In this document: positions 8,455 to 26,219 of the stretch, in pieces
Numbering within the stretch: position 1 is the stretch's first letter
Layout of the letters: every line of letters begins with the position of its first letter
From: a virus
Lineage: Duplodnaviria > Heunggongvirae > Uroviricota > Caudoviricetes
DNA: 26,727 nucleotides
Virus record (IMG/VR): IMGVR_UViG_2675903433_000037
Strand: one strand, 5' to 3'
Translations under genes and position numbers: made by a program
The notes under the pieces: generated by a model
Told to the model about the DNA's origin: nothing
The model's database searches: none
What the model saw: the letters and a program-made list of their open reading frames with translations, nothing else

Positions 8455-8481
8455 AACAATAAAAAAGGAGCCTGTAGCTCC
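8455..8481 (-). terminator. Rho-independent terminator (minus strand)
   Basis: Hairpin ggagc-ctgta-gctcc flanked on the plus strand by aataaaaaa, giving a U-run on the minus-strand RNA. Confidence 0.55.
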
Positions 8482-8503
8482 CTGATGATTTTGCTTTTCA
8501 TGT

Positions 8504-8719
8504 TCATCGCTCCTTAAAGACGCCGTTTAACATGCCGATCGCCAGACTTAAATGAGTCGGTGTGAATCCCATTAGCGTTACCGTTTCGCGGTGCTTCTTC
8601 AGTACGCTACGGCAAATGTCATCGACGTTTTTATCCGGAAACTGCTGTCTGGCTTTTTTGATTTCAGAATTAGCCTGACGGGCAATGCTGCGAAGGGCGT
8701 TTTCCTGCTGAGGTGTCAT
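8504..8719 (-). CDS. Hypothetical protein orfX, 71 aa (copy A)
   Basis: [15 protein letters not shown]...GVFKER. The ATG overlaps the stop of a small upstream ORF (ATGA). The track ORF carries a 22-aa N-terminal extension that I reject. Confidence 0.5.
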   Translation of the reverse strand: MTPQQENALRSIARQANSEIKKARQQFPDKNVDDICRSVLKKHRETVTLMGFTPTHLSLAIGMLNGVFKER

Positions 8720-8799
8720 TGAACAAGTCCCATGTCGGCAAGCATAAGCACACAGAATATGAAGCCTGCTGCCAGAAAAATGCATTCTGTTGTTGTCAT
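8716..8799 (-). CDS. Small hydrophobic peptide, 27 aa (copy A)
   Basis: [31 protein letters not shown] overlaps at both ends, with orf63-like upstream and orfX downstream. Too short for the ORF track. Confidence 0.35.
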   Translation of the reverse strand: MTTTECIFLAAGFIFCVLMLADMGLVQ

Positions 8800-8987
8800 G
8801 CCGGGTCTCTCTCGTTTGCTTCTGCTTTCGCCGCCATCATTTCCAGCTTTTGTGAAAGGGATGTGGCTAACGTATGAAATTCTTCGTCTGTTTCTACTGG
8901 TATTGGCACAAACCTGACTCCAATTTGAGCGAGGCTATGTGCCATCCCGATACTCGTTCTTAATTCAACAGGAGATGCTTTGTGCAT
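8796..8987 (-). CDS. Lambda orf63-like protein, 63 aa (copy A)
   Basis: Position and sequence resemble recalled lambda orf63 between exo and ea22. Confidence 0.55.
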   Translation of the reverse strand: MHKASPVELRTSIGMAHSLAQIGVRFVPIPVETDEEFHTLATSLSQKLEMMAAKAEANERDPA

Positions 8988-9148
8988 ACAGCCCCTCGTT
9001 TATTATTTATCTCTTCAGCCAGCCGCTGTGCTTTCAGTGGATTTCGGATAACAGAAAGGCCGGGAAATACCCAGCCTCGCTTTGTAACGGAGTAGACGAA
9101 AGTGATCGTGCCTACCCGGATATTATCGTGAGGATGCTTCATTACCAT
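8960..9148 (-). CDS. Lambda orf60a-like protein, 62 aa (copy A)
   Basis: '[11 protein letters not shown]...' lies immediately downstream of exo, as recalled for lambda orf60a. Confidence 0.55.
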
Positions 9149-9522
9149 TGCTCCCCATATACAAAACCAATTTCAGCCAGTGCCTCGTCCATTTTTTCGA
9201 TGAACTCCGGCACCATCTCGTCAAAACTCGCCATGTACTTTTCATTCCGCTCAATCACGACATAATGCAGGCCTTCACGCTTCATGCGCGGGTCATAGTT
9301 GGCAAAGTACCAGGCATCTTTTCGTGTCACCCACATGCTGTACTGCACCTGGGCCATGTAAGCCGATTTTATTGCCTCGAAACCACCGAGCCGGAATTTC
9401 ATGAAATCCCGGGAGGTAAACGGGCATTTCAGTTCAAGGCCGTTGCCGTCACTGCATAAACCATCGGGAGAGCAGGCGGTGCGCATACTTTCGTCGCGAT
9501 AGATGATCGGGGATTCAGTAAA
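9142..9522 (-). pseudogene. exo: exo 3' fragment (C-terminal ~125 codons), truncated by the IS element
   Basis: Translation equals the C-terminal part of the full exo at 12642-13319. Homology ends at 9522 where IS sequence begins. Confidence 0.8.
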
Positions 9523-9586
9523 TGAGGTAGCCTGAGTTTAACGGACACTCCTTCCTGAAATAGAATGGCATCAGAAGGAGCTAATA

Positions 9587-9889
9587 ATGAGCAGAAAAAC
9601 CCAACGTTACTCTAAAGAGTTCAAAGCCGAAGCTGTCAGAACGGTTCTTGAAAATCAACTTTCGATCAGTGAAGGCGCTTCCCGATTATCTCTTCCTGAA
9701 GGCACTTTAGGACAATGGGTTACCGCCGCCAGAAAAGGGCTCGGTACTCCTGGTTCCCGCACGGTGGCTGAACTGGAATCTGAAATTCTGCAACTGCGTA
9801 AGGCGTTAAATGAAGCTCGCCTTGAGCGAGATATATTAAAAAAAGCAACAGCGTATTTTGCACAGGAGTCGCTGAAAAATACGCGTTAA
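9587..9889 (+). CDS. IS3-family transposase OrfA (HTH), 100 aa
   Basis: 'MSRKTQRYSKEFKAEAV...' with a leucine-zipper-like C-terminus; slippery aaaaaaag at about 9838-9845. Confidence 0.85.
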   Translation: MSRKTQRYSKEFKAEAVRTVLENQLSISEGASRLSLPEGTLGQWVTAARKGLGTPGSRTVAELESEILQLRKALNEARLERDILKKATAYFAQESLKNTR

Positions 9890-9924
9890 TCGAACAATGG
9901 CGACAACAATTTCCCATTGAAGCG

Positions 9925-10743
9925 ATGTGTCAGGTATTTGGTGTATCCAGGAGCGGTTATTACAACTGGGTACAGCATGAACCCTCAGACAGAAAACAAA
10001 GTGATGAGCGGCTAAAACTGGAGATTAAGGTGGCACATATCCGCACTCGCGAAACATATGGAACCCGGCGGCTCCAGACGGAGCTGGCAGAGAATGGCAT
10101 CATCGTTGGTCGTGACCGACTGGCACGTCTTCGTAAGGAGCTAAGGCTACGCTGTAAGCAGAAACGCAAGTTCAGAGCGACTACGAACTCGAACCACAAT
10201 CTGCCAGTTGCGCCAAATCTGCTGAACCAGACGTTCGCTCCTACAGCACCAAATCAGGTCTGGGTGGCGGACCTGACGTATGTTGCCACACAGGAGGGAT
10301 GGTTGTACCTCGCTGGCATCAAAGATGTTTATACGTGCGAAATTGTCGGCTACGCCATGGGAGAGCGCATGACAAAAGAGCTGACAGGTAAAGCTCTGTT
10401 TATGGCGCTCAGGAGCCAGCGCCCACCTGCCGGGCTAATCCACCACTCTGATCGAGGTTCACAGTACTGCGCATACGATTACCGGGTCATACAGGAGCAG
10501 TTTGGTCTGAAAACATCAATGTCGCGTAAAGGTAACTGTTACGACAACGCTCCGATGGAAAGCTTCTGGGGAACGCTGAAAAATGAGAGCCTGAGCCACT
10601 ATCGTTTTAATAACCGGGATGAAGCCATCTCAGTAATACGGGAATACATTGAGATTTTCTACAATCGTCAGCGTCGTCACTCTCGTCTGGGGAATATCTC
10701 CCCGGCAGCCTTCAGGGAAAAATATCATCAGATGGCTGCTTAA
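9925..10743 (+). CDS. IS3-family transposase OrfB (DDE integrase core)
   Basis: 'WVADLTYV...HHSDRGSQY...CYDNAPMESFW' DDE motifs. The native product is probably an OrfAB fusion by -1 frameshift, so the true 5' end lies upstream of this ATG. Confidence 0.85.
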   Translation: MCQVFGVSRSGYYNWVQHEPSDRKQSDERLKLEIKVAHIRTRETYGTRRLQTELAENGIIVGRDRLARLRKELRLRCKQKRKFRATTNSNHNLPVAPNLLNQTFAPTAPNQVWVADLTYVATQEGWLYLAGIKDVYTCEIVGYAMGERMTKELTGKALFMALRSQRPPAGLIHHSDRGSQYCAYDYRVIQEQFGLKTSMSRKGNCYDNAPMESFWGTLKNESLSHYRFNNRDEAISVIREYIEIFYNRQRRHSRLGNISPAAFREKYHQMAA

Positions 10744-10790
10744 AAAAAGAACAAATGGTAGTGTCCGCTATTGCCAGTACACCTCAGTTC

Positions 10791-10979
10791 TTAACTCAAC
10801 AGGAGATGCTTTGTGCATACAGCCCCTCGTTTATTATTTATCTCCTCAGCCAGCCGCTGGGCTTTCAGTGGATTTTGGATAACAGAAAGGCCGGGAAATA
10901 CCCAGCCTCGCTTTGTAACGGAGTAGAAGAAAGTGATCGTGCCTACGCGGATATTATCGTGAGGATGCTTCATCGCCAT
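10791..10979 (-). CDS. orf60a-like protein (copy B, divergent)
   Basis: Same family as 8960-9148 with several substitutions. Confidence 0.5.
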
Positions 10980-11650
10980 TGCTCCCCAAATACAAAACCA
11001 ATTTCAGCCAGTGCCTCGTCCATTTTTTCGATGAACTCCGGCACCATCTCGTCAAAACTCGCCATGTAATTTTCATCCCGCTCAACCACGACATAATGCA
11101 GGCCTTCACGCTTCATTCGTGGGTCATAGTTGGCAAAGTACCAGGCATCTTTTCGCGTCACCCACATGCTGTACTGCACCTGGGCCATGTAAGCCGACTT
11201 TATGGCCTCGAAACCACCGAGCCGGAATTTCATGAAATCCCGGGAGGTAAACGGGCATTTCAGCTCAAGGCCGTTGCCGTCACTGCATAAACCATCGGGA
11301 GAGCAGGCGGTGCGCATACTTTCGTCGCGATAGATGATCGGGGATTCAATAACATTTACGCCGGAAGTGAACTCAAACAGGGTTCTGGCGTCGTTCTCGT
11401 ACTGTTTTCCCCAGGCCAGCGCTTTAGCGTTAACTTCCGGAGCCACACCGGTGCAAACCTCAGCCAGCAGGGTGTGGAAGTAGGATATTTTCATGTCAGG
11501 CCACTTCTTTCCTGATCGGGGCTTTGCTATCACGTTGTGAACTTCTGAAGCGGTGATGACGCCGAGCCGTAATTTGTGCCATGCATCATCCCCCTGTTCG
11601 ACAGCTCTCACGTCGATCCCGGTACGCTGCAGGATAATGTCCGGTGTCAT
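10970..11650 (-). CDS. exo: Lambda-type exonuclease, 226 aa (copy B, divergent allele)
   Basis: Full-length ORF ending GEQWR like recalled lambda Exo; differs from copies A and C at several residues. Confidence 0.85.
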
Positions 11651-12219
11651 GCTGCCACCTTCTGCTCAGTGGCTTTCTGTTTCAGGAATCCAAGAGCTTT
11701 CACTGCTTCGGCCTGTGTCAGTTCTGACGATGCGCGAATGTCGCGGCGAAATATCTGGGAACAGAGCGGCAATAAGTCGTCATCCCATGTTTTATCCAGG
11801 GCGATCAGCAGAGTGTTAATCTCCTGCATGGTTTCATCGTTAACCGGAGTGATGTCGCGTTCTGGCTGACGTTCTGCAGTGTATGCAGTATTTTCGACAA
11901 TGCGCTCGGCTTCATCCTTGTCATAGATACCAGCAAATCCGAAGGCCAGACGGGCACACTGAATCATGGCTTTATGCCGTAACATCCGTTTGGGATGCGA
12001 CTGCCACGGATCCTTAAAGACGCCGTTTAACATGCCGATCGCCAGACTTAAATGAGTCGGTGTGAATCCCATTAGCGTTACCGTTTCGCGGTGCTTCTTC
12101 AGTACGCTACGGCAAATGTCATCGACGTTTTTATCCGGAAACTGCTGTCTGGCTTTTTTGATTTCAGAATTAGCCTGACGGGCAATGCTGCGAAGGGCGT
12201 TTTCCTGCTGAGGTGTCAT
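11647..12219 (-). CDS. Chimeric ORF: orfX N-terminal 69 aa fused in frame to the Bet C-terminal 119 aa
   Basis: Translation is MTPQQ...[15 protein letters not shown]...KVAA. The junction near 12005 joins bet-internal sequence to the orfX 3' end. Confidence 0.6.
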
Positions 12220-12299
12220 TGAACAAGTCCCATGTCGGCAAGCATAAGCACACAGAATATGAAGCCTGCTGCCAGAAAAATGCATTCTGTTGTTGTCAT
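12216..12299 (-). CDS. Small hydrophobic peptide, 27 aa (copy C)
   Basis: Identical to 8716-8799, offset by 3500 bp. Confidence 0.3.
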   Translation of the reverse strand: MTTTECIFLAAGFIFCVLMLADMGLVQ

Positions 12300-12487
12300 G
12301 CCGGGTCTCTCTCGTTTGCTTCTGCTTTCGCCGCCATCATTTCCAGCTTTTGTGAAAGGGATGTGGCTAACGTATGAAATTCTTCGTCTGTTTCTACTGG
12401 TATTGGCACAAACCTGACTCCAATTTGAGCGAGGCTATGTGCCATCCCGATACTCGTTCTTAATTCAACAGGAGATGCTTTGTGCAT
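12296..12487 (-). CDS. orf63-like protein (copy C)
   Basis: Identical to copy A. Confidence 0.55.
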   Translation of the reverse strand: MHKASPVELRTSIGMAHSLAQIGVRFVPIPVETDEEFHTLATSLSQKLEMMAAKAEANERDPA

Positions 12488-12648
12488 ACAGCCCCTCGTT
12501 TATTATTTATCTCTTCAGCCAGCCGCTGTGCTTTCAGTGGATTTCGGATAACAGAAAGGCCGGGAAATACCCAGCCTCGCTTTGTAACGGAGTAGACGAA
12601 AGTGATCGTGCCTACCCGGATATTATCGTGAGGATGCTTCATTACCAT
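12460..12648 (-). CDS. orf60a-like protein (copy C)
   Basis: Identical to copy A. Confidence 0.55.
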
Positions 12649-13319
12649 TGCTCCCCATATACAAAACCAATTTCAGCCAGTGCCTCGTCCATTTTTTCGA
12701 TGAACTCCGGCACCATCTCGTCAAAACTCGCCATGTACTTTTCATTCCGCTCAATCACGACATAATGCAGGCCTTCACGCTTCATGCGCGGGTCATAGTT
12801 GGCAAAGTACCAGGCATCTTTTCGTGTCACCCACATGCTGTACTGCACCTGGGCCATGTAAGCCGATTTTATGGCCTCGAAACCACCGAGCCGGAACTTC
12901 ATGAAATCCCGGGAGGTAAACGGGCATTTCAGCTCAAGGCCGTTGCCGTCACTGCATAAACCATCGGGAGAGCAGGCGGTGCGCATACTTTCGTCGCGAT
13001 AGATGATCGGGGATTCAGTAACATTCACGCCGGAAGTGAACTCAAAGAGGGTTCTGGCGTCGTTCTCGTACTGTTTTCCCCAGGCCAGAGCCTTAGCGTT
13101 AACTTCCGGAGCCACACCGGTGCAAACCTCAGCCAGCAGGGTGTGGAAGTAGGACATTTTCATGTCAGGCCACTTCTTTCCTGATCGGGGTTTTGCTATT
13201 ACGTTGTGAATTTCTGAAGCTGTGATGACGCCGAGCCGTAATTTGTGCCACGCATCATCTCCCTGTTCGACAGCTCTCACGTCGATCCCAGTACGCTGCA
13301 GGATAATGTCCGGTGTCAT
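12642..13319 (-). CDS. exo: Lambda exonuclease (Red-alpha), 225 aa
   Basis: Near-identical to recalled lambda Exo; ends GEQW-stop, one codon shorter than copy B. Overlaps the bet stop. Confidence 0.9.
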
Positions 13320-14106: not shown

Positions 14107-14403
14107 TTATACCTCTGAATCAATATCAACCTGGTGGTGAGCAATGGTTTCAACCATGTACCGGATGTGTTCTGCCATGCGCTCCTGAAACTCAACATCG
14201 TCATCAAACGCACGGGTAATGGCTTTTTTGCTGGCCCCGTGGCGTTGCAAATGATCGATGCATAGCGATTCAAACAGGTGCTGGGGCAGGCCTTTTTCCA
14301 TGTCGTCTGCCAGTTCTGCCTCTTTCTCTTCACGGGCGATCTGCTGGTAGTGACGCGCCCAGCTCTGAGCCTCAAGACGATCCTGAATGTAATAAGCGTT
14401 CAT
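14107..14403 (-). CDS. gam: Gam (RecBCD inhibitor), short 98-aa form
   Basis: '[60 protein letters not shown]...' matches recalled lambda Gam. Confidence 0.9.
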
Positions 14404-14478
14404 GGCTGAACTCCTGAAAATGGCTGTGAAAAAATCGCCCGCGGAATGCCAGGCTGATTCGGAAAACAGGAAAGGGGA

Positions 14479-14769
14479 TTAGTGATTCAGACCGTTGCCG
14501 CGTCCGTCGAGAAAAACTTCCACGAGCAAGTCACGGGTATAAGTGCGCTCAATGCCGCGATGCAGATAAAGTCGTCCGCGTAAATTAGCTGATGCAGTCC
14601 AGGTACCATCTTTGCGTTTGACCAGCATTCCTGGCATGACCGCACCGCGATTAACGGTCTGCGTTCCGTAATGTTGATGAACCATAAAAACTCCTGCCCG
14701 TAAGCTGGGCTGCTGAACATATAAAGACTTCTGCGCGTATTCAGGCGGTGGATGGCCGCCGGTTGTCAT
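14479..14769 (-). CDS. Hypothetical protein at the kil position, 96 aa
   Basis: First gene of the leftward operon after the putative OL/PL; ATG with a gagg RBS. Identity to Kil not verifiable from memory. Confidence 0.4.
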   Translation of the reverse strand: MTTGGHPPPEYAQKSLYVQQPSLRAGVFMVHQHYGTQTVNRGAVMPGMLVKRKDGTWTASANLRGRLYLHRGIERTYTRDLLVEVFLDGRGNGLNH

Positions 14770-14939
14770 AACTAAGCCGCCTCGTTGAAGCGACTAAGGT
14801 ATGAAATGTTGAGTTGATTTCAGCTGGTCACACCGACGTTCACGCGTCCGTTTCATCCCTCGCACTCCCCGAAGCCTGCTGAAATTCAAGCTGCGGATCT
14901 AAGCGGTCATCGCAACGGTGAATCAGGTGATTGCCGTAT

Positions 14940-15060
14940 CGTTGTGTTGTTGCGATGAACTCATTTAAAACTATAGTTGTTTTATCGTCAACAACAAAAG
15001 TTGTTTTGTTGGTTGTTTTAGATATAACTGGTTGTATTTAAGATGGATTTATTTTGTGAC
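14940..15060 (-). promoter_or_regulatory. Putative OL/PL operator-promoter region
   Basis: AT-rich tract with repeated gttgtt / aacaac half-sites, for example 'aaaactatagttgtttt', related to the inverted repeat in the cI-cro intergenic region. Confidence 0.4.
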
Positions 15061-15120
15061 TTGCATCGCATAGCGATAACTGAAGCGAGGTCGTGGTGGT
15101 TTTTTTGAACGGTGTATGAT

Positions 15121-15151
15121 GAGGGGAGGGCAAAAGAAAACCCGGCACGGT
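15121..15151 (-). terminator. Rho-independent terminator ending the cI operon (tIMM-like)
   Basis: Hairpin cccggc-acggtg-gccggg flanked by aaaagaaaa on the plus strand, giving a U-run on the minus-strand RNA. Confidence 0.65.
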
Positions 15152-15235
15152 GGCCGGGTTTAGATGATTGGTTAAGAGCGAGGGTAATGGGGAATGAAAA
15201 ATCGCTTTACCTAATGCAAGGGTGCGAGCATTTTC

Positions 15236-15679
15236 TTAAGCACTAAAGAAAAAGTACATTGATAGCTTATAAAGTCCTGTTCCTGCAGCGATGATTGCTG
15301 GAACACCAAGCAATACCGCAAGCTTTGCGTCTGAAATCTTTCTATCGACAGCATCACTTGATGGCTTGTTTGTTAAGGATTCTTTTATAGAGTCCAGACG
15401 TGCAAGAATAGTTATCATATTTTTGTCGATAGCTTTAACGTCTGTTTTAAGTTCATCAACGTCTCGTTTGATATGAGCAACATCGGACTCCAGTTTTGCA
15501 ACTTTTTCAGGCATGTTATCACTCCCAGACCCACTGCTACCACTTGATTGTAGCATGTCCCATCTTTTTCCAGATATACCTGCTAGCTGGGAAGACGCAC
15601 TGGAGTGCAAACAAAATGATTCTGCCGCCTTTGCAATTTTATCATTTAGGTTTGGAGCTTCGTAATAATCGTGTTTCAT
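15236..15679 (-). CDS. Coiled-coil protein with C-terminal membrane anchor, 147 aa (rex-position gene 2)
   Basis: Ser/Gly-rich linker, heptad-like 'VAKLESDVAHIKRDVDELKTDVKAIDKNMITILARLDSIKESL', hydrophobic tail 'LAVLLGVPAIIAAGTGLYKL'. Starts 12 nt after the upstream stop. Confidence 0.6.
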   Translation of the reverse strand: MKHDYYEAPNLNDKIAKAAESFCLHSSASSQLAGISGKRWDMLQSSGSSGSGSDNMPEKVAKLESDVAHIKRDVDELKTDVKAIDKNMITILARLDSIKESLTNKPSSDAVDRKISDAKLAVLLGVPAIIAAGTGLYKLSMYFFFSA

Positions 15680-15691
15680 AATTAATTACGA

Positions 15692-15955
15692 TTAGTTTGT
15701 TTTAGCTTTGTCATGCTGGTCGCGAATGAAGTCAGCCAATTTAAGCATCAATTCTTCGGGCATTCTAATGGTTGCAATGTTGTACTTTATGTTCTCAACA
15801 TCGTCACTTTCATCAACAGGCCATTCAGTTACATTATGAAAAAAAGAAATTGAACCTAGGCGCTGAGAGCCGTCACCAAACGAAGAGTAGCCAAACGCGT
15901 CGGCGTATGCATCGACACAGTTATTTGATTTTTTAACAAGTGTTTTATTACTCAT
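15692..15955 (-). CDS. Hypothetical 87-aa protein with C-terminal RHH-like motif (rex-position gene 1)
   Basis: ATG with a gggaaagg RBS directly downstream of cI. C-terminal 'IATIRMPEELMLKLADFIRDQ' resembles a ribbon-helix-helix strand-helix. Confidence 0.55.
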   Translation of the reverse strand: MSNKTLVKKSNNCVDAYADAFGYSSFGDGSQRLGSISFFHNVTEWPVDESDDVENIKYNIATIRMPEELMLKLADFIRDQHDKAKTN

Positions 15956-16036
15956 TTTTGCCTTTCCCGTAATGTTATTTTTTATAAGGTATTTTCTTCA
16001 GCGTATTACCCAAAAGCCTCATCAACACGCGGCTGA

Positions 16037-16726
16037 TTATCCGTGTTTTCTGTACGTCTGCGGCATGCTCCCAATAACCTTACCGAATATGAATACCCGG
16101 TTCATCTCGTCTTTCTCGATAGGGTCCCACGGTGAGTAGCTCTTGTTATCAGAGATAACCAGCAGTTTATCCTTCATCATTTGCAGGCGCTTTACATGGG
16201 CGGTGTCGTCGTACAGAAATGCATAGATACCATCACCGTCGAAAGATTTAACCGTGATATCAACGAACAGCAGATCACCTGGTTCGATCGTTCCTGACAT
16301 GCTGTCACCACGCACGTTAATGATGCGGATATTTTCTGCCTTCCTACCATCGAACATGTGACGAGCATCGTCAAACGAGTACTCAACCGAGCGTAGAACT
16401 TCTACAAACTCACGGTTGATGACTCCCGGCCCAGCACTGACTTCTATATCAAGAACGTCAATCTTGAAGTATTTGGAATGGCTGACAGTTGATTGTATTG
16501 GTTGCACTGTACTGTCTGACATATTTCCAACGCCAGAAGATAACCATTCTGCGCGCACACCCAAAGCGTTCGCGATCTCCACGATTTTAGTTGTTTGATT
16601 AGCTTTCCCTGTTTCGATTTTCTGAATAGCAGCCTGGCTAACCCCGACCAAATCCCCAAGCGCCTTTTGTGTAAGGCCTCGCGCTAATCTGGCTTCTTTA
16701 AGTCTTTCTGAGAGTGTTGTTTTCAT
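16037..16726 (-). CDS. cI-type prophage repressor (N-terminal HTH plus S24 peptidase domain), 229 aa
   Basis: HTH 'LTQKALGDLVGVSQAAIQKIETG' and S24 signature 'VRGDSMSGTIEPGDLLFV' with a downstream Lys in 'HVKRLQ'. Start chosen at MKTTL; the track's upstream ATG at 16792 lies inside the operator. Confidence 0.85.
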   Translation of the reverse strand: MKTTLSERLKEARLARGLTQKALGDLVGVSQAAIQKIETGKANQTTKIVEIANALGVRAEWLSSGVGNMSDSTVQPIQSTVSHSKYFKIDVLDIEVSAGPGVINREFVEVLRSVEYSFDDARHMFDGRKAENIRIINVRGDSMSGTIEPGDLLFVDITVKSFDGDGIYAFLYDDTAHVKRLQMMKDKLLVISDNKSYSPWDPIEKDEMNRVFIFGKVIGSMPQTYRKHG

Positions 16727-16830
16727 AGTCCAAATGTACAACCAAGGTTTTATTCCATCAAACGAAAATGGTTGTTGACTAAAAACAACCATAGTTTTAA
16801 TCTTGATTCAAATTAACCACGGAGGTTGTT
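16727..16830. promoter_or_regulatory. Divergent PRM/PR-type promoter-operator region
   Basis: 104-bp spacer between the divergent cI-like and cro-like genes. Inverted repeat atggttgtt-N9-aacaaccat at about 16768-16795; the cro-like gene has a ggagg RBS. Confidence 0.6.
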
Positions 16831-17061
16831 ATGAACCCAGCTATCAAAACAGCGATCAATATCGTTGGTTCACAAAAGAAACTGGGCGCTGCCTGCGAAG
16901 TTTCACAGCAGGCCGTCTATAAGTGGCTTCACAACAAAGCAAAGGTATCCCCTGAACATGTCGGCAGCATTGTTACGGCTACTGGTGGAGTAGTGAAGGC
17001 ATACCAGATTCGCCCGGATCTTCCGAAGTTGTTTCCACACACCGAAAAGAACGCAGCTTAA
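16831..17061 (+). CDS. Cro/YdaS-like HTH regulator, 76 aa
   Basis: Small HTH protein ('AACEVSQQAVYKWL') transcribed divergently from the repressor. Confidence 0.75.
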   Translation: MNPAIKTAINIVGSQKKLGAACEVSQQAVYKWLHNKAKVSPEHVGSIVTATGGVVKAYQIRPDLPKLFPHTEKNAA

Positions 17062-17130
17062 ATTTCCATTTCACGCTCTTTAACAATAAGCAATCAACTT
17101 AACAGTCAATTCAAACTAAAGGAGTCAATT

Positions 17131-17670
17131 ATGCAACCACTTCCATACCAACAGACTAGCGGATTTAGCCCGACTGCGGTGATAAATCGTTCTCAAACAA
17201 AACAGGTGCCAGGCCACGAAAAAATCCGTGATGCCGTCCGCGCCTGGTCGGCTGTAGATAATCAGGATGTCGTTGCCACACTCATTGTGAATGAGTATCG
17301 GGAGCAGGGCGGCGGCACCATCGATTTCCCTGATGATGTCAGCCGTACACGCCAGAAGCTGTTCCGCTTCCTCGATAACAAATTCGATTCTGAAAAATAC
17401 CGAAATAACGTGCGTGAACTGACCCCGGCAATTCTGGCGGTACTACCGCTGGAATATCGCGGTTACCTGGTTGAGCAGGATAGCTTCATGGCTAGGTTGG
17501 CTGAAATGGAAAAGGAACTCAGTGAGGCAAAACAGGCTGTCATTCTCAACGCACCACGCCACCAGAAACTGAAGGAAATTAGTGAAGGTATTGTGTCGAT
17601 GTTTCGTGTGGACCCAGAGCTGGCTGGTCCATTGATGGCGATGGTTACTACCATGCTGGGGGCGATATGA
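17131..17670 (+). CDS. YdaT-like protein at the cII position, 179 aa
   Basis: 'EYREQGGGT' and 'LTPAILAVLPLEYRGYL' resemble recalled Rac-prophage YdaT; aaggag RBS. Confidence 0.55.
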   Translation: MQPLPYQQTSGFSPTAVINRSQTKQVPGHEKIRDAVRAWSAVDNQDVVATLIVNEYREQGGGTIDFPDDVSRTRQKLFRFLDNKFDSEKYRNNVRELTPAILAVLPLEYRGYLVEQDSFMARLAEMEKELSEAKQAVILNAPRHQKLKEISEGIVSMFRVDPELAGPLMAMVTTMLGAI

Positions 17671-17756
17671 CAGGTTCAGAAATGGCGAAAGCCGGTCTGC
17701 TGGAACAGAACCGACTTTCAGGTGCAAATCGTAACACACTCATTGCGGGAGGAATT

Positions 17757-18686
17757 ATGGCAAACACTGCTGAGATATTCAATTTTCCAGTGCCGGATGC
17801 GGCACAAAAGGAGCCGCGCGTGGCAGATCTCGATGATGGTTATACGCGCATTGCAAATGAGTTGCTGGAAGCTGTAATGCTGGCCGGATTAACACAGCAC
17901 CAGCTTCTGGTCTTCCTGGCTGTCATGCGCAAAACATATGGCTTTAATAAAAAACTGGACTGGGTGAGCAACGAGCAACTTTCCGAGTTGACCGGGATAT
18001 TGCCGCACAAGTGTTCTGCTGCAAAAAGTGTTCTGGTAAAGCGTGGGATTTTTATTCAGAGCGGGCGGAATATCGGCATTAATAATGTGGTCAGTGAATG
18101 GTCAACATTACCCGAATCAGGTAAGAAAAATAAAGTTTACCTGAAAGAGGTAAATTTACCTGAATCAGGTAAGAAAAGTTTACCCAAATCAGGTAAAGGC
18201 ACTTACCCGAATCAGGTAAACACAAAAGACAAACTAACAAAAGACAATATAAAACCTTATTCGTCCGAGAATTCTGGCGAATCCTCTGACCTGCCAGAAA
18301 ACGACCTTCCTGTGGTGAAAGCGGATGCTGCGATTCAGAGCGGCAGCAAGTGGGGGACAGCAGAAGACCTGACCGCCGCAGAGTGGATGTTTGACATGGT
18401 GAAGACCATCGCGCCATCAGCCAGAAAACCGAATTTTGCAGGGTGGGCTAACGATATCCGTCTGATGCGTGAACGTGATGGACGTAACCACCGCGACATG
18501 TGTGTACTGTTCCGCTGGGCCTGCCAGGACAACTTCTGGTCCGGTAACGTGCTGAGTCCGGCCAAACTCCGCGACAAGTGGACCCAGCTCGAAATCAACC
18601 GGAACAAGCAACAGGCTGGCGTGACAGTCGGCAAACCAAAACTCGACCTGACAAACACAGACTGGATTTACGGGGTGGATCTATGA
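17757..18686 (+). CDS. O: Replication initiator O-like protein, 309 aa
   Basis: N-terminus resembles lambda O ('ADLDDGY...RKTYG'); ori iterons lie inside the gene; stop overlaps the P start. The track ORF starts 90 nt upstream; ATG 17757 has a gggagga RBS. Confidence 0.85.
   Translation: MANTAEIFNFPVPDAAQKEPRVADLDDGYTRIANELLEAVMLAGLTQHQLLVFLAVMRKTYGFNKKLDWVSNEQLSELTGILPHKCSAAKSVLVKRGIFIQSGRNIGINNVVSEWSTLPESGKKNKVYLKEVNLPESGKKSLPKSGKGTYPNQVNTKDKLTKDNIKPYSSENSGESSDLPENDLPVVKADAAIQSGSKWGTAEDLTAAEWMFDMVKTIAPSARKPNFAGWANDIRLMRERDGRNHRDMCVLFRWACQDNFWSGNVLSPAKLRDKWTQLEINRNKQQAGVTVGKPKLDLTNTDWIYGVDL
18105..18270. repeat. Origin of replication: four to five palindromic ~18-bp iterons plus an AT-rich tract
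   Basis: Repeated tTACCcgAATCAGGTAAg units at about 18109, 18136 (degenerate), 18155, 18179 and 18201, followed by an A-rich stretch. Confidence 0.7.
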
Positions 18687-19384
18687 AAAACATCGCCGCA
18701 CAGATGATTAACTTTGACCGTGAGCAGATGCGTCGGATCGCCAACAACATGCCGGAACAGTACGACGAAAAGCCGCAGGTACAGCAGGTAGCGCAGATAA
18801 TCAACGGTGTATTCAGCCAGTTACTGGCAACTTTCCCGGCGAGCCTGGCTAATCGTGACCAGAACGAACTGAACGAAATCCGCCGCCAGTGGGTTCTGGC
18901 TTTCCGGGAAAACGGGATCACCACGATGGAACAGGTGAGCGCCGGAATGCGTGTTGCCCGTCGGCAGAATAGACCATTTCTGCCATCACCCGGGCAGTTT
19001 GTTGCATGGTGCCGGGAAGAAGCATCCGTTAACGCCGGGCTGCCAAACGTCAGCGAGCTGGTTGATATGGTTTACGAGTATTGCCGGAAGCGTGGCCTGT
19101 ATCCGGATGCAGAGTCTTATCCGTGGAAATCGAACGCGCATTACTGGTTGGTTACCAACCTGTACCAGAACATGCGGGCCAATGCGCTGACTGACGCGGA
19201 ATTACGGCGCAAGGCTGCCGATGAACTGACCTGTATGACAGCGCGAATTAACCGTGGTGAGACGATACCTGAACCAGTAAAACAACTTCCTGTTATGGGC
19301 GGTAGACCTCTAAATCGTGCACAGGCTCTGGCGAAGATCGCAGAAATCAAAGCTAAGTTTGGGCTGAAAGGAGCAAGTGTATGA
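18683..19384 (+). CDS. P: Replication protein P (DnaB helicase loader), 233 aa
   Basis: 'MKNIAAQMINFDREQMRRIANNMPEQYDEKPQVQQVAQIINGVFSQLLATFPASLANRDQNE...' is near-identical to recalled lambda P. Confidence 0.95.
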   Translation: MKNIAAQMINFDREQMRRIANNMPEQYDEKPQVQQVAQIINGVFSQLLATFPASLANRDQNELNEIRRQWVLAFRENGITTMEQVSAGMRVARRQNRPFLPSPGQFVAWCREEASVNAGLPNVSELVDMVYEYCRKRGLYPDAESYPWKSNAHYWLVTNLYQNMRANALTDAELRRKAADELTCMTARINRGETIPEPVKQLPVMGGRPLNRAQALAKIAEIKAKFGLKGASV

Positions 19385-20164: not shown

Positions 20165-20257
20165 CGGTGACTTCTGCGCTAAACGGGGACGTTTATGCGC
20201 ACATACAATCCAAACTCTCTTCTCCCTCCACAGATGCAGAAATACACCTGCGATTTT
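20165..20257 (+). repeat. Direct repeat R1 (93 bp) carrying an RBS and the 5' end of a ylcH-like small ORF
   Basis: About 94% identical to 22487-22579. Contains ggggacgtttATGcgcacatacaat..., with the ATG at 20195 opening a 46-codon ORF. Confidence 0.8.
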
Positions 20258-20414: not shown

Positions 20415-20444
20415 TTGACGACATTATTTATCCGGCGCTATATT
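20415..20444 (+). promoter_or_regulatory. Sigma70-like promoter
   Basis: -35 TTGACG, 18-bp spacer, -10 TATATT. Confidence 0.45.
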
Positions 20445-20504
20445 CTGTGCGTTGCCGCAAAATCGGCACACGGGATTGGCGTCCCGGACATCAAAACGAC
20501 GCAT

Positions 20505-20527
20505 AACCGCGTTCGCGGTTTTTTTAT
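20505..20527 (+). terminator. Intrinsic terminator in the leader upstream of the Bro-N gene
   Basis: aaccgcg-tt-cgcggtt hairpin followed by ttttttt, about 60 nt downstream of the predicted promoter. Confidence 0.55.
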
Positions 20528-20688
20528 GCGCAGTGCACGTCTACACAAAAATTATGGTGGGCTGTGTGAGGGCTTCTTCGGAAGCGCCGGATTTCGTTTT
20601 GACCGGTTACGCCAACCTTGCACAGTCCACCACCAGTCGATTGGCGTCGTCGGTGGTGATAGCTCAAATTCAAAACGAGATTATCGCT

Positions 20689-21297
20689 ATGGTCACTCAG
20701 CTCGCATTCCGCGATGTAAAATTCACTCCTATAAATCACAACAACCAGATCTGGTTTACCAGCAAAGAATTGGCGGCAGCATTAAAATATGCCAGCACCA
20801 AAGCAGTAACCGACATCTACAACAAAAATATTGATGAGTTTACTGACGGAATGTCTCAGGTCGTCGAATCAACGACCTCAGGAAATTATCGTAAGAAGAC
20901 TCGCATTTTCTCCCTCCGTGGCGCCCATCTGATCGCCATGTTCGCCCGCACTCCTGTGGCCAAAGAATTCCGCCGCTGGGTGCTGGATATTCTCGATCGA
21001 GAAATTCAACAATCCCCAATCACAAAACAATTCACTGATAACGAACTTTGCACACTTGCTTGGTTATGGCGGGCAAGTGACACAATGTTAACCGCTTGCC
21101 AAAACGTCACTCCGCTTCTTCAGGTAGCAGAACACCGCGAAGCCGGTCGCTTCACTTCAATCGAACAAGAATATCCCCGGATACTCAATAAGGCACAGGC
21201 AATCCTTGCCAGAGAAACGGCACATGTAAAATTCCGGCCGTGGCAGGATGATAAGTGGAGTCGAGTATTGACGCATTTACGTTCTGAACGGCTGTAA
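20689..21297 (+). CDS. Bro-N domain antirepressor-like protein, 202 aa
   Basis: N-terminus 'FTPINHNNQIWFTSKELAAAL...RIFSLRGAHLIAMFARTPVAKEFRRWVLDIL' fits the Bro-N pattern. The track's 281-aa ORF would span the promoter and terminator. Confidence 0.65.
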   Translation: MVTQLAFRDVKFTPINHNNQIWFTSKELAAALKYASTKAVTDIYNKNIDEFTDGMSQVVESTTSGNYRKKTRIFSLRGAHLIAMFARTPVAKEFRRWVLDILDREIQQSPITKQFTDNELCTLAWLWRASDTMLTACQNVTPLLQVAEHREAGRFTSIEQEYPRILNKAQAILARETAHVKFRPWQDDKWSRVLTHLRSERL

Positions 21298-21596: not shown

Positions 21597-22013
21597 ATGA
21601 ATAAAAACGACCTTGAAGCATTATCTGACACTAGGCTTAATGAGGCCAAATGCTTGCTTGATCATGGCTTTTTTCATGGTGCATATTATCTTTGTGGGTA
21701 TGCAGTTGAATGTGCATTGAAGGCCTGTATTGCCAAGTCATTTTTACAACATGAGTTTCCAAACAAAAAAGTCGTAAATGATTCATATACTCATGATTTG
21801 TCGCAACTTCTCAAAATTGCCAACTTACATCAAATTTTGATTGCTGACGCAAAAAATGATGTTTCGTTGGAGATTAACTGGTCGGTCGTTAAAGACTGGA
21901 GCGAGCAATTTAGATACGACAATAACATAAGTAAAGCTATGGCCGAACAATTGTTTGATGCTGTAGGTGACCAAAATTCTGGAGTTTTGAAATGGGTAAA
22001 AGCACACTGGTAA
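21597..22013 (+). CDS. HEPN-like domain protein, 138 aa
   Basis: 'AYYLCGYAVECALKACIAK', 'YTHDLSQLLKIA' and 'EQFRYDNN' resemble the PF05168-type HEPN helical signature. AT-rich gene. Confidence 0.6.
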   Translation: MNKNDLEALSDTRLNEAKCLLDHGFFHGAYYLCGYAVECALKACIAKSFLQHEFPNKKVVNDSYTHDLSQLLKIANLHQILIADAKNDVSLEINWSVVKDWSEQFRYDNNISKAMAEQLFDAVGDQNSGVLKWVKAHW

Positions 22014-22393: not shown

Positions 22394-22486
22394 GAAATCT
22401 CTTGCTGGGTATCATTATTGTTTAAATGACTTTTGATTTTCAATAATCAACTTGTCATAATTAAGTCACCGGAGTTTGAACTCCTC

Positions 22487-22579
22487 CGGTGACTTCTGCG
22501 CTAAACGGGGACGTTTATGCGCACATACAATCTAAACTATCTTCTCCCGTCACAGATGCAGAAATGCACCTGCGATTTT
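22487..22579 (+). repeat. Direct repeat R2 (93 bp)
   Basis: Second copy of R1, preceded by a perfect 9-bp-stem hairpin (tcaccggag...ctccggtga). Confidence 0.8.
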
Positions 22580-24676: not shown

Positions 24677-25759
24677 TTAGAACTGGTAAACCATACCTAC
24701 AGCAACGATATCATCGGTAGCAACGCCAGATGCTTTCGTGAAATCGCTCTTATCAATCAGGTTGATTTTGTAGTCAACAAAAGTGGACATATTTTTGTTG
24801 AAGTAATAGGTTGCACCTACATCAATATATTCAACCAGGTCCTGATCACCCCAAGCACCCAAGTCTTTCCCTTTAGATTGCAGATAAGCAACGGACGGAC
24901 GCAGACCGAAGTCGAACTGATATTGTGCAACTACTTCGAAGTTTTGTGCTTTGTTGGCAATATGGTTTTTACCAAAAACAGTCATGTTTTGGGTTTCAGA
25001 ATAGGTAGTAGCCAGATAGATGTTGTTCGCATCATATTTCAGACCAGCTGCCCATACTTCAGCATTTTGACCAGATGCATTCAGGCTGTTGTTACCGTAG
25101 ATAACCTGATTATTAGTGCGATCAGATTTAGCATAGGTTGCACCTACGCCGAAACCTTCATACTCATAAGTAGTGGAGAAACCGAAACCATCACCATTAG
25201 CTTGAGTTACGTCAGTACGGTCATTTTTACCCTGATACTGAGCAGCAAAGTTCAGACCATCAACCAGACCAAAGAAGTCATTGTTACGATAAGTTGCAAC
25301 ACCTGTGGTGCGACCAGTCATGAATACATCTGTTTGGGTCCAGGTATCGCCACCGAATTCTGGCAGAACGTCGGTCCATGCACCAATATCGTATGCTACA
25401 CCGTAGTTACGGCCATAATCGATGGAGCCGTAGTCACCGAATTTCAGGCCAGCGAAGGCAAGACGGGTTTTATCTTTGGAGGAACCTTGAGATTCAGCGC
25501 GGTTGCCTTTGAATTCATATTCCCACTGACCGAAACCAGTCAGTTGATCGTTGATTTGGGTTTCACCTTTGAAGCCAAGACGGGCATAAGTAGTATCACC
25601 ATCATCTGCATCATTAGAGGAGAAGTAGTGCTTAGCATTAACTTTCCCGTACAGATCCAGCTTGTTACTGTCTTTATTATAAATTTCAGCTGCCTGAGCA
25701 GACATCGCCATCAGTACTGATGCAGCTACAGCAGAAATTGCCACTGTTAATTTTTTCAT
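24677..25759 (-). CDS. nmpC: Prophage-encoded OmpC-family porin (NmpC/Lc-type), 360 aa
   Basis: Signal peptide [23 protein letters not shown] followed by '[17 protein letters not shown]...' and a C-terminal F; OmpC/OmpF-like porin, opposite strand between Q and S. Confidence 0.9.
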
Positions 25760-26186: not shown

Positions 26187-26219
26187 AAACCCGCCGTCGA
26201 GCGGGTTTTTCCATTTTTT
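26187..26219 (+). terminator. Rho-independent terminator upstream of the lysis genes (tR'-like)
   Basis: aaacccgc-cgtcga-gcgggttt followed by ttccatttttt. Confidence 0.6.

Follow-up and report, generated by a model that had tools for sequence, protein, structure and literature searches.

The closest described relatives of the locus analyzed here include the prophage CP-933P, in whose YdaS/YdaT-type immunity region YdaT acts as a CII analogue and CIII is absent (PMC8630535). YdaT of CP-933P activates the promoter PRE between ydaS and ydaT (PMC8630535, PMC9986795), and the CII protein of phi80 is related to YdaT (PMC8630535). Leaderless repressor mRNA is known for lambda cI and, by 5' RACE, for paaR2 of CP-933P (PMC8630535). 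An N-less lambdoid phage has also been described, for which RNA-based (put-like) antitermination is the usual suspicion (PMC12315714). The N-less state is already known in several lambda-like phages. Here, we analyzed IMG/VR virus record IMGVR_UViG_2675903433_000037, a 26,727-nucleotide (nt) stretch of Caudoviricetes DNA referred to as a whole as the window. Its region around positions 14940-17670, with the adjoining leftward genes, is probably the immunity (lysis/lysogeny) switch of a lambdoid prophage, predicted to operate in the manner of lambda and 434 and without N-type early antitermination on the left. The immunity specificity is new and uncharacterized, and each notable feature already has a published precedent.

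For every feature that can be tested computationally, the predicted switch is of the lambda/434 kind. As in lambda and 434, cI and cro are divergent and about 100 bp apart, three predicted operators with 23- to 24-bp spacing lie at lambda's distances from the cI ATG, a second operator cluster lies at PL, and the repressor is of the S24 self-cleaving type. Cargo genes and a terminator between cI and the left operator (OL) correspond to rexAB of lambda, and the helix-turn-helix (HTH) of cI is most similar to that of the 434 repressor. The locus differs from both phages in having a YdaS-family Cro and, in the position of CII, a YdaT-family protein; it has no cIII, N, or nutL, and a boxA stands alone at the nutR position. 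Furthermore, PL and gam are 2.3 kb apart in lambda, whereas here the leader and a KilR-type kil occupy about 0.55 kb.

The first-pass annotation, made from the letters of the window and its open reading frames (ORFs), had called this architecture Rac-like. Gene order and gene families bear out an immunity region, and the label holds for ydaS, ydaT, and kil. Like Rac and CP-933P, the locus lacks cIII, pairs a Cro of YdaS type with a CII analogue of YdaT type, and has a KilR-type kil among its leftward genes, and the leaderless transcript proposed here for cI has its counterpart in the leaderless repressor mRNA of CP-933P (PMC8630535). The label does not hold for the repressor, which is 434/lambda-like: RacR and PaaR2 lack a peptidase domain, whereas cI joins an S24 domain to a 434-like HTH and so is not a repressor of their type. 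Nor does it hold for the recombination genes, which are recET in Rac and lambda Red (gam, bet, exo) here. The Rac kilR leader (kilS) is not homologous to the PL leader of the window.

A 434-like repressor with lambda-like operator geometry

The repressor gene and the predicted control sites on both sides of it are as follows (strands given where assigned).

16037-16726, minus strand: cI repressor, 229 amino acids (aa); Pfam matches to HTH_3 (E = 5e-13) and Peptidase_S24 (E = 1e-18)
16733-16803: right operator (OR) with PRM and PR, from pattern matches; promoters and starts predicted from the sequence
16738-16751: OR3, 14-bp ACAAC-N4-GTTKT site
16762-16775: OR2, 14-bp site of ACAAC-N4-GTTKT form, with an ACGA half-site
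16785-16798: OR1, 14-bp ACAAC-N4-GTTKT site
16761-16726, minus strand: putative PRM, with -35 TTGATG (16761-16756), 17-nt spacer, -10 TACATT (16738-16733), and +1 at the A of ATG 16726
16775-16810, plus strand: putative PR, with -35 TTGACT (16775-16780), 17-nt spacer, -10 TAATCT (16798-16803), and +1 at about 16810
14963-15004, minus strand: PL/OL region, from pattern matches and sequence reading
14967-14980, minus strand: OL1, ACAACTATAGTTTT
14991-15004, minus strand: OL2, ACAACTTTTGTTGT
14991-14956, minus strand: putative PL, with -35 TTGACG (14991-14986), 17-nt spacer, -10 TTAAAT (14968-14963), and +1 at about A14956

The Pfam matches agree with the earlier description of the repressor as cI/LexA-like, with an HTH and an S24 peptidase. 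The HTH is N-terminal and the S24 domain C-terminal, as in S24 self-cleaving repressors, and the Ala-Gly (SAGPG), GDSM, and VKRL motifs are readable in the translation. Among solved structures, the closest relative of the N-terminal domain is the 434 repressor (E = 4.5e-9). The relatives of the repressor suggest a 14-bp operator unit. Exact ACAAC-N4-GTTKT sites were found five times in the two operator regions, three in OR and two in OL. With at most one mismatch, the window holds 14 matches compared with 4.4 expected, a number reached by none of 100 shuffles. Of all 120-bp segments in the 26.7 kb, the two richest in ACAAC/GTTGT lie in OL, with 7 copies, and in OR, with 5, and OR3 and OR1 were also recovered as a direct repeat 47 bp apart. 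The half-sites are 434-like, of the form ACAA...TTGT, as in the 434 operator.

The inverted repeats that had been proposed as operators (ttgtt-N7/8-aacaa) are indeed present between cI and cro and in OL, and the two clusters are related. These repeats are probably not themselves operator units: the large palindrome ATGGTTGTT-N7-AACAACCAT consists of the right half of OR2 and the adjoining left half-site of OR1. The window has exactly two copies of TTGTT-N5-10-AACAA, one each in OR and OL (0.46 expected; 12 of 100 shuffles reach two), and by itself this pattern is weak evidence. The 14-bp ACAAC-N4-GTTKT site is the better-supported unit of the predicted operators. Three such related sites overlap the putative PR and PRM between the divergent cI and cro genes, with the OL cluster at PL; the centers of the three lie 18.5, 42.5, and 65.5 bp from the cI ATG, and the corresponding distances in the lambda record are 19, 42, and 66 bp.

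The repressor gene had also been suggested to be leaderless, with no Shine-Dalgarno (SD) sequence at ATG 16726. Indeed, the 20 nt before this ATG contain no purine-rich SD sequence; GGAGG or AGGAG precedes each of cro, ydaT, and kil. The putative -10 element TACATT occupies positions -12 to -7 relative to the ATG, 17 nt from TTGATG. The cI mRNA is thus probably leaderless, with the PRM transcript starting at the A of ATG 16726. This prediction is well supported because the OR distances from the ATG are near-identical to those in lambda and OR2 lies at the activating position, and the geometry is its strongest computational support. The 229-aa start is the one used by RefSeq. A 251-aa ORF from ATG 16792, annotated in one phage record, is disfavored, as its start lies inside OR1/OR2 and it adds 22 residues before a domain that aligns with the 434 repressor from residue 2.

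In a lysogen, the 434-like CI would bind the 14-bp operators, shutting PR by occupancy of OR1 and OR2 and PL by occupancy of OL1 and OL2, and when bound to OR2, centered some 42 bp ahead of the cI ATG, it would probably activate PRM. Beyond cI, the transcript would cross a cassette of two cargo genes and end at a terminator shortly ahead of OL. Once CI cleaves itself under RecA stimulation, PR and PL would be derepressed.

A leftward operon without N

The features downstream of the putative PL, all on the minus strand, are the following.

14686-14956, minus strand: 5' leader of the predicted PL transcript, about 270 nt, conserved; no N gene, nutL boxA, or tL1-type terminator
14794-14856, minus strand: arginine-rich mini-ORF MKRTRERRCDQLKSTQHFIP followed by a stop, 20 codons; first ORF after PL, in frame with kil across a single TAG
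14775-14795, minus strand: RNA hairpin AGUCGCUUC-AAC-GAGGCGGCU, from folding; predicted to sequester GAGG before ATG 14769
14686-14769, minus strand: leader ORF MTTGGHPPP..., polyproline, here fused in frame to kil
14479-14769, minus strand: 96-aa ORF including kil; phrog_294 match (E = 1e-37, residues 20-96)
14479-14685, minus strand: kil (KilR-type cell division inhibitor), 68 aa; AGGAG 5 nt upstream of the ATG
14107-14403, minus strand: gam, from Pfam and PHROG scans
8465-8483, minus strand: intrinsic terminator-like site, an 8-bp stem and then TTTTATTGTT, between orf61-like and DksA/TraR-like genes

The first gene after PL had been listed as a 96-aa protein of no recognizable function. The phrog_294 match, the alignment with Rac KilR, the AGGAG, and the RefSeq call of a 68-aa product ("phage encoded cell division inhibitor protein") together identify it as kil. 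The BLASTP alignment with Rac KilR (34% identity over 61 aa, E = 2e-11) places the protein in the KilR family, with KilR residue 1 at Met29 of the 96-aa ORF; homologues from other genera start at MVHQHYG. The real kil start is therefore probably ATG 14685. The gam-bet-exo genes lie directly to the left of this first PL gene, as had been stated.

Pfam and PHROG scans of the ORFs between PL and gam (14400-15250) and of 10 further ORFs in the left and right arms returned no N or cIII family, in agreement with the earlier reading. The first gene after PL is not of an N family, and boxA plus boxB do not occur in both leaders; boxA is present on the right only, no hairpin follows it, and no boxB-like element is shared with the left leader. 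A search for an overlooked N-like ORF yielded a single candidate, the mini-ORF at 14856-14794, which fails the coding test described below. The claim that there is no room for N was likewise upheld: the PL start lies about 150 nt before an element whose counterpart in phi80 comes after N and the terminator tL1A.

This element, consisting of the hairpin and an MTTGGHPP ORF upstream of kil, is the main likeness to phi80. A distant BLAST search with the PL leader recovered a single shared piece (14806-14744), in phi80, HK225, HK639, and some Enterobacter, Klebsiella, and Salmonella phages, whereas the first 150 nt have no homologues outside this phage family. In phi80, the element directly follows nutL, N (98 aa), and tL1A, an intrinsic terminator, and in HK225 and HK639 a gene and a clear terminator lie just before it. 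In the window, these are replaced by the approximately 150 nt of unrelated leader, with no terminator before the hairpin. As the family lacks the whole nutL-N-tL1 cassette, PL transcription should reach kil, gam, bet, and exo unaided. These genes would be expressed directly through the conserved 270-nt leader; N-type early antitermination on the left would be absent, and transcription of the genes from kil to exo would not require it.

Among the viral and genome loci fetched, all type 1 PL copies (103 occurrences) are followed by this leader, which also follows PL in two other immunity types. Identity among the three immunity types starts exactly at the predicted PL +1, which fits a module boundary at the putative transcription start. 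Pairing of the hairpin at 14795-14775 is kept despite different sequences in phi80, HK639, and HK225, and wobble or compensatory variants occur within the family. The MTTGGHPP ORF is a separate 21-codon upstream ORF (uORF) in phi80 and HK225. Here, its DNA is nearly invariant and has no codon position bias (3, 2, and 2 segregating sites in 84 nt). The hairpin and the MTTGGHPPP ORF may together control the toxic kil, as an attenuator that acts on translation or is linked to Rho.

Farther to the left, the arm at 8504-13319 is rearranged relative to O26 and lambda. A DUF1317/exo segment occurs three times (8956, 10787, and 12456; 96% identity) and an orf61-like segment twice (8511 and 12011; 100% identity), and a hybrid ORF at 11647-12285 joins the N terminus of orf61 to the C terminus of Bet. 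An insertion sequence interrupts one of the exo copies. At 9587-10743, inside the first copy, lie two consecutive transposase-like ORFs (100 and 272 aa) of IS3 family appearance by eye.

The rightward operon, boxA, and a candidate Q promoter

Downstream of the putative PR, the plus strand carries the following features.

16831-17061, plus strand: cro, YdaS family; PF15943 (E = 4e-17) and phrog_35
17074-17086, plus strand: boxA, CGCTCTTTAACAA, of which 12 bases equal the rrn boxA core; 13 nt past the cro stop codon and 44 nt before ydaT
17131-17670, plus strand: YdaT-type CII analogue; PF06254 (E = 7e-30) and phrog_163 ("CII-like")
17667-18686, plus strand: O, Phage_rep_O in Pfam
18683-19384, plus strand: P, Phage_lambda_P in Pfam

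PF15943 and PF06254 confirm the assignment of Cro/YdaS-like and YdaT-like genes on this side, and a YdaS-family Cro followed by a YdaT-family protein and replication genes is the arrangement of a YdaS/YdaT module. The match of YdaT to the CP-933P YdaT structure 8bt1 is weak (E = 1e-3); its helix RTRQKLFRFLD aligns with RNTQKIFRWLD in the recognition region of the CP-933P protein. Transcription from PR would express the YdaS-type Cro, the YdaT-type CII analogue, and then O and P.

The boxA is the sole exact match to GCTCTTTAACAA in the window, where about 0.003 is expected from length, and its position is that of lambda nutR. The 69-nt cro-ydaT spacer in which it lies is unstructured (-4.1 kcal/mol; z score of +0.4), and folding revealed no boxB-like hairpin after boxA. 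A second boxA on the leftward strand, CGCTCTTA at 15180-15173, lies upstream of PL inside the exchangeable cargo; as about 0.8 such 8-mers are expected, it was judged fortuitous. Sequence shared by the spacer and the PL leader was also observed. The motif AATCAACT(T/C)AACA occurs at 17092-17104 in the spacer and at 14805-14817 (minus strand) in the leader, and its AATCAA part equals a YdaT half-site. The shared motif AATCAACTYAACA, spotted by eye, has a chance expectation of about 1%, and no hairpin or known site fits it.

The published YdaT operator is TTGATT-N6-AATCAA (PMC9986795). Its only perfect match in the window, TTGATTTTCAATAATCAA at 22433-22450, compares with about 0.003 exact copies expected by length; with at most two mismatches there are 8 matches, compared with 2.4 expected. 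The perfect copy covers the -35 element of a promoter-like sequence with an extended -10, TTGATT-17-(TG)CATAAT (22433-22461), which is followed by a 10-bp perfect hairpin (22466-22494) and lies approximately 1.64 kb upstream of the Q gene quuD. The promoter-like sequence is kept in every fetched locus that spans it, including O26, NCTC10444, and phage IdasGreatGrand. In Gifsy-1, mapping placed the transcript start of antQ (Q) 1.6 kb upstream of the gene (PMC4825925). The CII analogue may thus control a separate promoter for the Q operon, in which case N would be less needed.

Alternative explanations for the N-less state

The put-like RNA commonly suspected in N-less lambdoid phages is not borne out by the sequence. 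HK022 and HK639 resemble the locus in being lambdoid phages without N and differ from it in carrying put RNA. A covariance model built from three sequences only (HK022 putL, HK022 putR, and HK639 putL) found nothing in the window by cmsearch, the best hit (8.3 bits, E = 0.8) lying outside both leaders. The two-stem put RNA after PL and cro was therefore rejected, and no Rfam family was found in or near the immunity region. It is conceivable, and in our view improbable, that the PL leader is itself a cis-acting antiterminator RNA unlike that of HK022, with the 5' stem at 14955-14905 or the hairpin plus MTTGGHPPP as candidates. Three immunity types share the conserved leader from its first transcribed base onward, the pairing of the hairpin survives sequence change in four phages, the 84 nt after the hairpin are more conserved than codon positions 1 and 2 of kil, and RNA antitermination is the usual suspect in such phages (PMC12315714). 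However, the leader folds no better than its shuffles (z score of -1.5), the PR side has no counterpart, and the hairpin and uORF lie downstream of a working N in phi80 and of the phage's own putL in HK639 and are therefore no substitute for either; translational or Rho-linked control of toxic kil explains them more simply. Less probable still is that the mini-ORF (MKRTRERR...), alone or by readthrough of its TAG into the kil frame, encodes a diverged N-like antiterminator. It lies ahead of all other ORFs downstream of PL and in frame with the kil ORF, its N terminus resembles lambda N in the arginine-rich motif, and among 128 related loci codon 21 is CAG in 53. The remaining 75 have TAG, so that stop and sense are both common at this position, and the start codon varies as well (GTG in 103, ATG in 24, and GGG, a loss, in 1). 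Segregating sites by codon position number 5, 2, and 4 in the mini-ORF, with no third-position excess, versus 13, 11, and 37 in kil. Gene callers rarely predict the mini-ORF, it matches no family, and the left and right leaders share no boxB-like hairpin. It was rejected as an N gene.

The most probable of the rival mechanisms, although still unlikely, is that the host NusB/NusE/NusA/NusG/SuhB complex assembles at the boxA that follows cro, with no N involved. Transcription from PR would then withstand Rho, and possibly intrinsic terminators as well, or ydaT translation would be modulated as for suhB. This idea is favored by the exact 12-nt match to the rrn core, unique in the window and placed like lambda nutR, and by the missing boxB hairpin; for rrn and suhB, Nus complexes acting with boxA as the sole element are documented (PMC5725501, PMC4807359). 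However, the PL leader has no boxA within two mismatches, nor have relatives of another immunity type that share ydaT, the PL leader, and kil and are equally N-less. The element could also be a relic carried with the cro module; a distant BLAST search found no homologues of the cro-ydaT spacer outside this immunity type. A broader proposal, which we offer tentatively and regard as rather doubtful, is that the family, which is very common in E. coli, runs its early program without any processive early antiterminator, having dropped the nutL-N-tL1 cassette and transcribing nin-Q from the YdaT operator promoter at 22433-22461; boxA loading of host Nus factors without N would be a variant of it.

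Several observations weigh against a lambda/434-like switch without N-type antitermination on the left. Only two OL sites are clear, not three, and an exact rrn-type boxA at the nutR position hints at Nus factor involvement. Moreover, terminator-like sites lie farther along both operons. The one reported in the left operon (8455-8481) corresponds to the T-run hairpin at 8483-8465; on the right, there is an isrK terminator at 20498-20520, and in phage IdasGreatGrand a strong terminator-like site lies between P and Q. Passing or bypassing such downstream terminators is still needed to reach int/xis and Q. The terminators considered are intrinsic sites only, as Rho-dependent ones are not predictable by the methods used.

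Cargo cassette and other features of the window

The segment between cI and OL contains the following features.

15162-16036, minus strand: exchangeable cargo cassette, bounded by the cI stop codon and the terminator, in the rexAB position
15692-15955, minus strand: cargo gene 1, no known function (PHROG scan)
15236-15679, minus strand: cargo gene 2, no known function; coiled-coil, hydrophobic C terminus
15138-15161, minus strand: intrinsic terminator ending the cI operon, with a 9-bp stem, 6 GC pairs, and a T-run; position of the lambda terminator after rexB

The homology with IdasGreatGrand and PhiR5_1 ends precisely at 15158/15160 on one side and at 16037/16038 on the other. As these breaks coincide with the top of the terminator hairpin (15161) and the cI stop codon (16037), 15162-16036 is read as an exchangeable cassette. 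These two phages have genes annotated as HipA/HipD and GevT/GevA between the same junctions, where related phages may also carry other hypotheticals, and the terminator is conserved in relatives with different cargo. The comparison thus marks the slot between cI and the terminator as an exchange hot spot. The two cargo genes match phrog_4231 and phrog_3556, both families without known function, and PADLOC returned nothing convincing for them.

A P1-type antirepressor control module, present also in phage IdasGreatGrand, lies at 20438-20637 and 20452-21297. Rfam matches in it are c4-a1b1 (below threshold), isrK (64 bits), and the C4 antisense RNA (82 bits); next comes an ORF for an Ant-like antirepressor, and a promoter-like site lies at 20415-20444. 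This Ant module may also contribute to derepression. A repeated element of approximately 90 nt (GGTGACTTCTGCGCTAAACGGGGACGTTTATGCGCACATACAATC...) is found before the isrK/Ant module (20168-20255) and before the nin-Q operon (22488-22575), each copy with a weak terminator-like hairpin at its end and a small ORF starting MRTYN. At 21597-22013, an ORF that RefSeq names HEPN-domain protein, with a weak PADLOC match to the candidate defence family PDC-M28A (E = 2e-7), is followed by an overlapping small ORF; this nin-region pair may serve in defence or as toxin and antitoxin. A porin gene (ompC/nmpC-like; 24677-25759, minus strand) lies between Q and the lysis genes, and a strong terminator at 26187-26208, about 100 nt before the holin gene, has the position of lambda tR'.

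Distribution and implications

The 3.3 kb around the region are 100% identical to a prophage in Escherichia coli O26:H11 11368, NCTC10444, and others. In these E. coli genomes, the prophage adjoins tRNA-Arg and fimZ and so occupies the DLP12 (argU) site. Coverage of at least 80% was found in 197 of 5,426 complete E. coli genomes, and parts are present in 2,715 genomes. The cultured phages PhiR34_1, PhiR5_1, PhiR47_2, PhiR26_1, and IdasGreatGrand, the last from swamp mud, have the same immunity region, with 96 to 98% identity outside the swapped cargo cassette. As the region is found in cultured phages, it is a working phage module and more than prophage debris. No N is annotated in the plaque-forming phages with the same arrangement, and literature searches on the PhiR phage series and on the HipD/GevT names returned nothing useful.

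For annotation, the analysis favors the 229-aa over the 251-aa start of cI, the 68-aa start of kil, and treatment of the small ORFs of the PL leader as noncoding. It also provides a predicted operator and promoter map for an immunity type of prophages in O26 and other pathogenic E. coli and of several cultured phages. If the YdaT operator promoter does drive nin-Q, the CII analogue would gate commitment to late gene expression directly, unlike lambda CII, which acts via an antisense promoter. As a family without N, nut, or put, these plaque-forming phages would be a tractable model for how N-less lambdoid phages reach Q and int.

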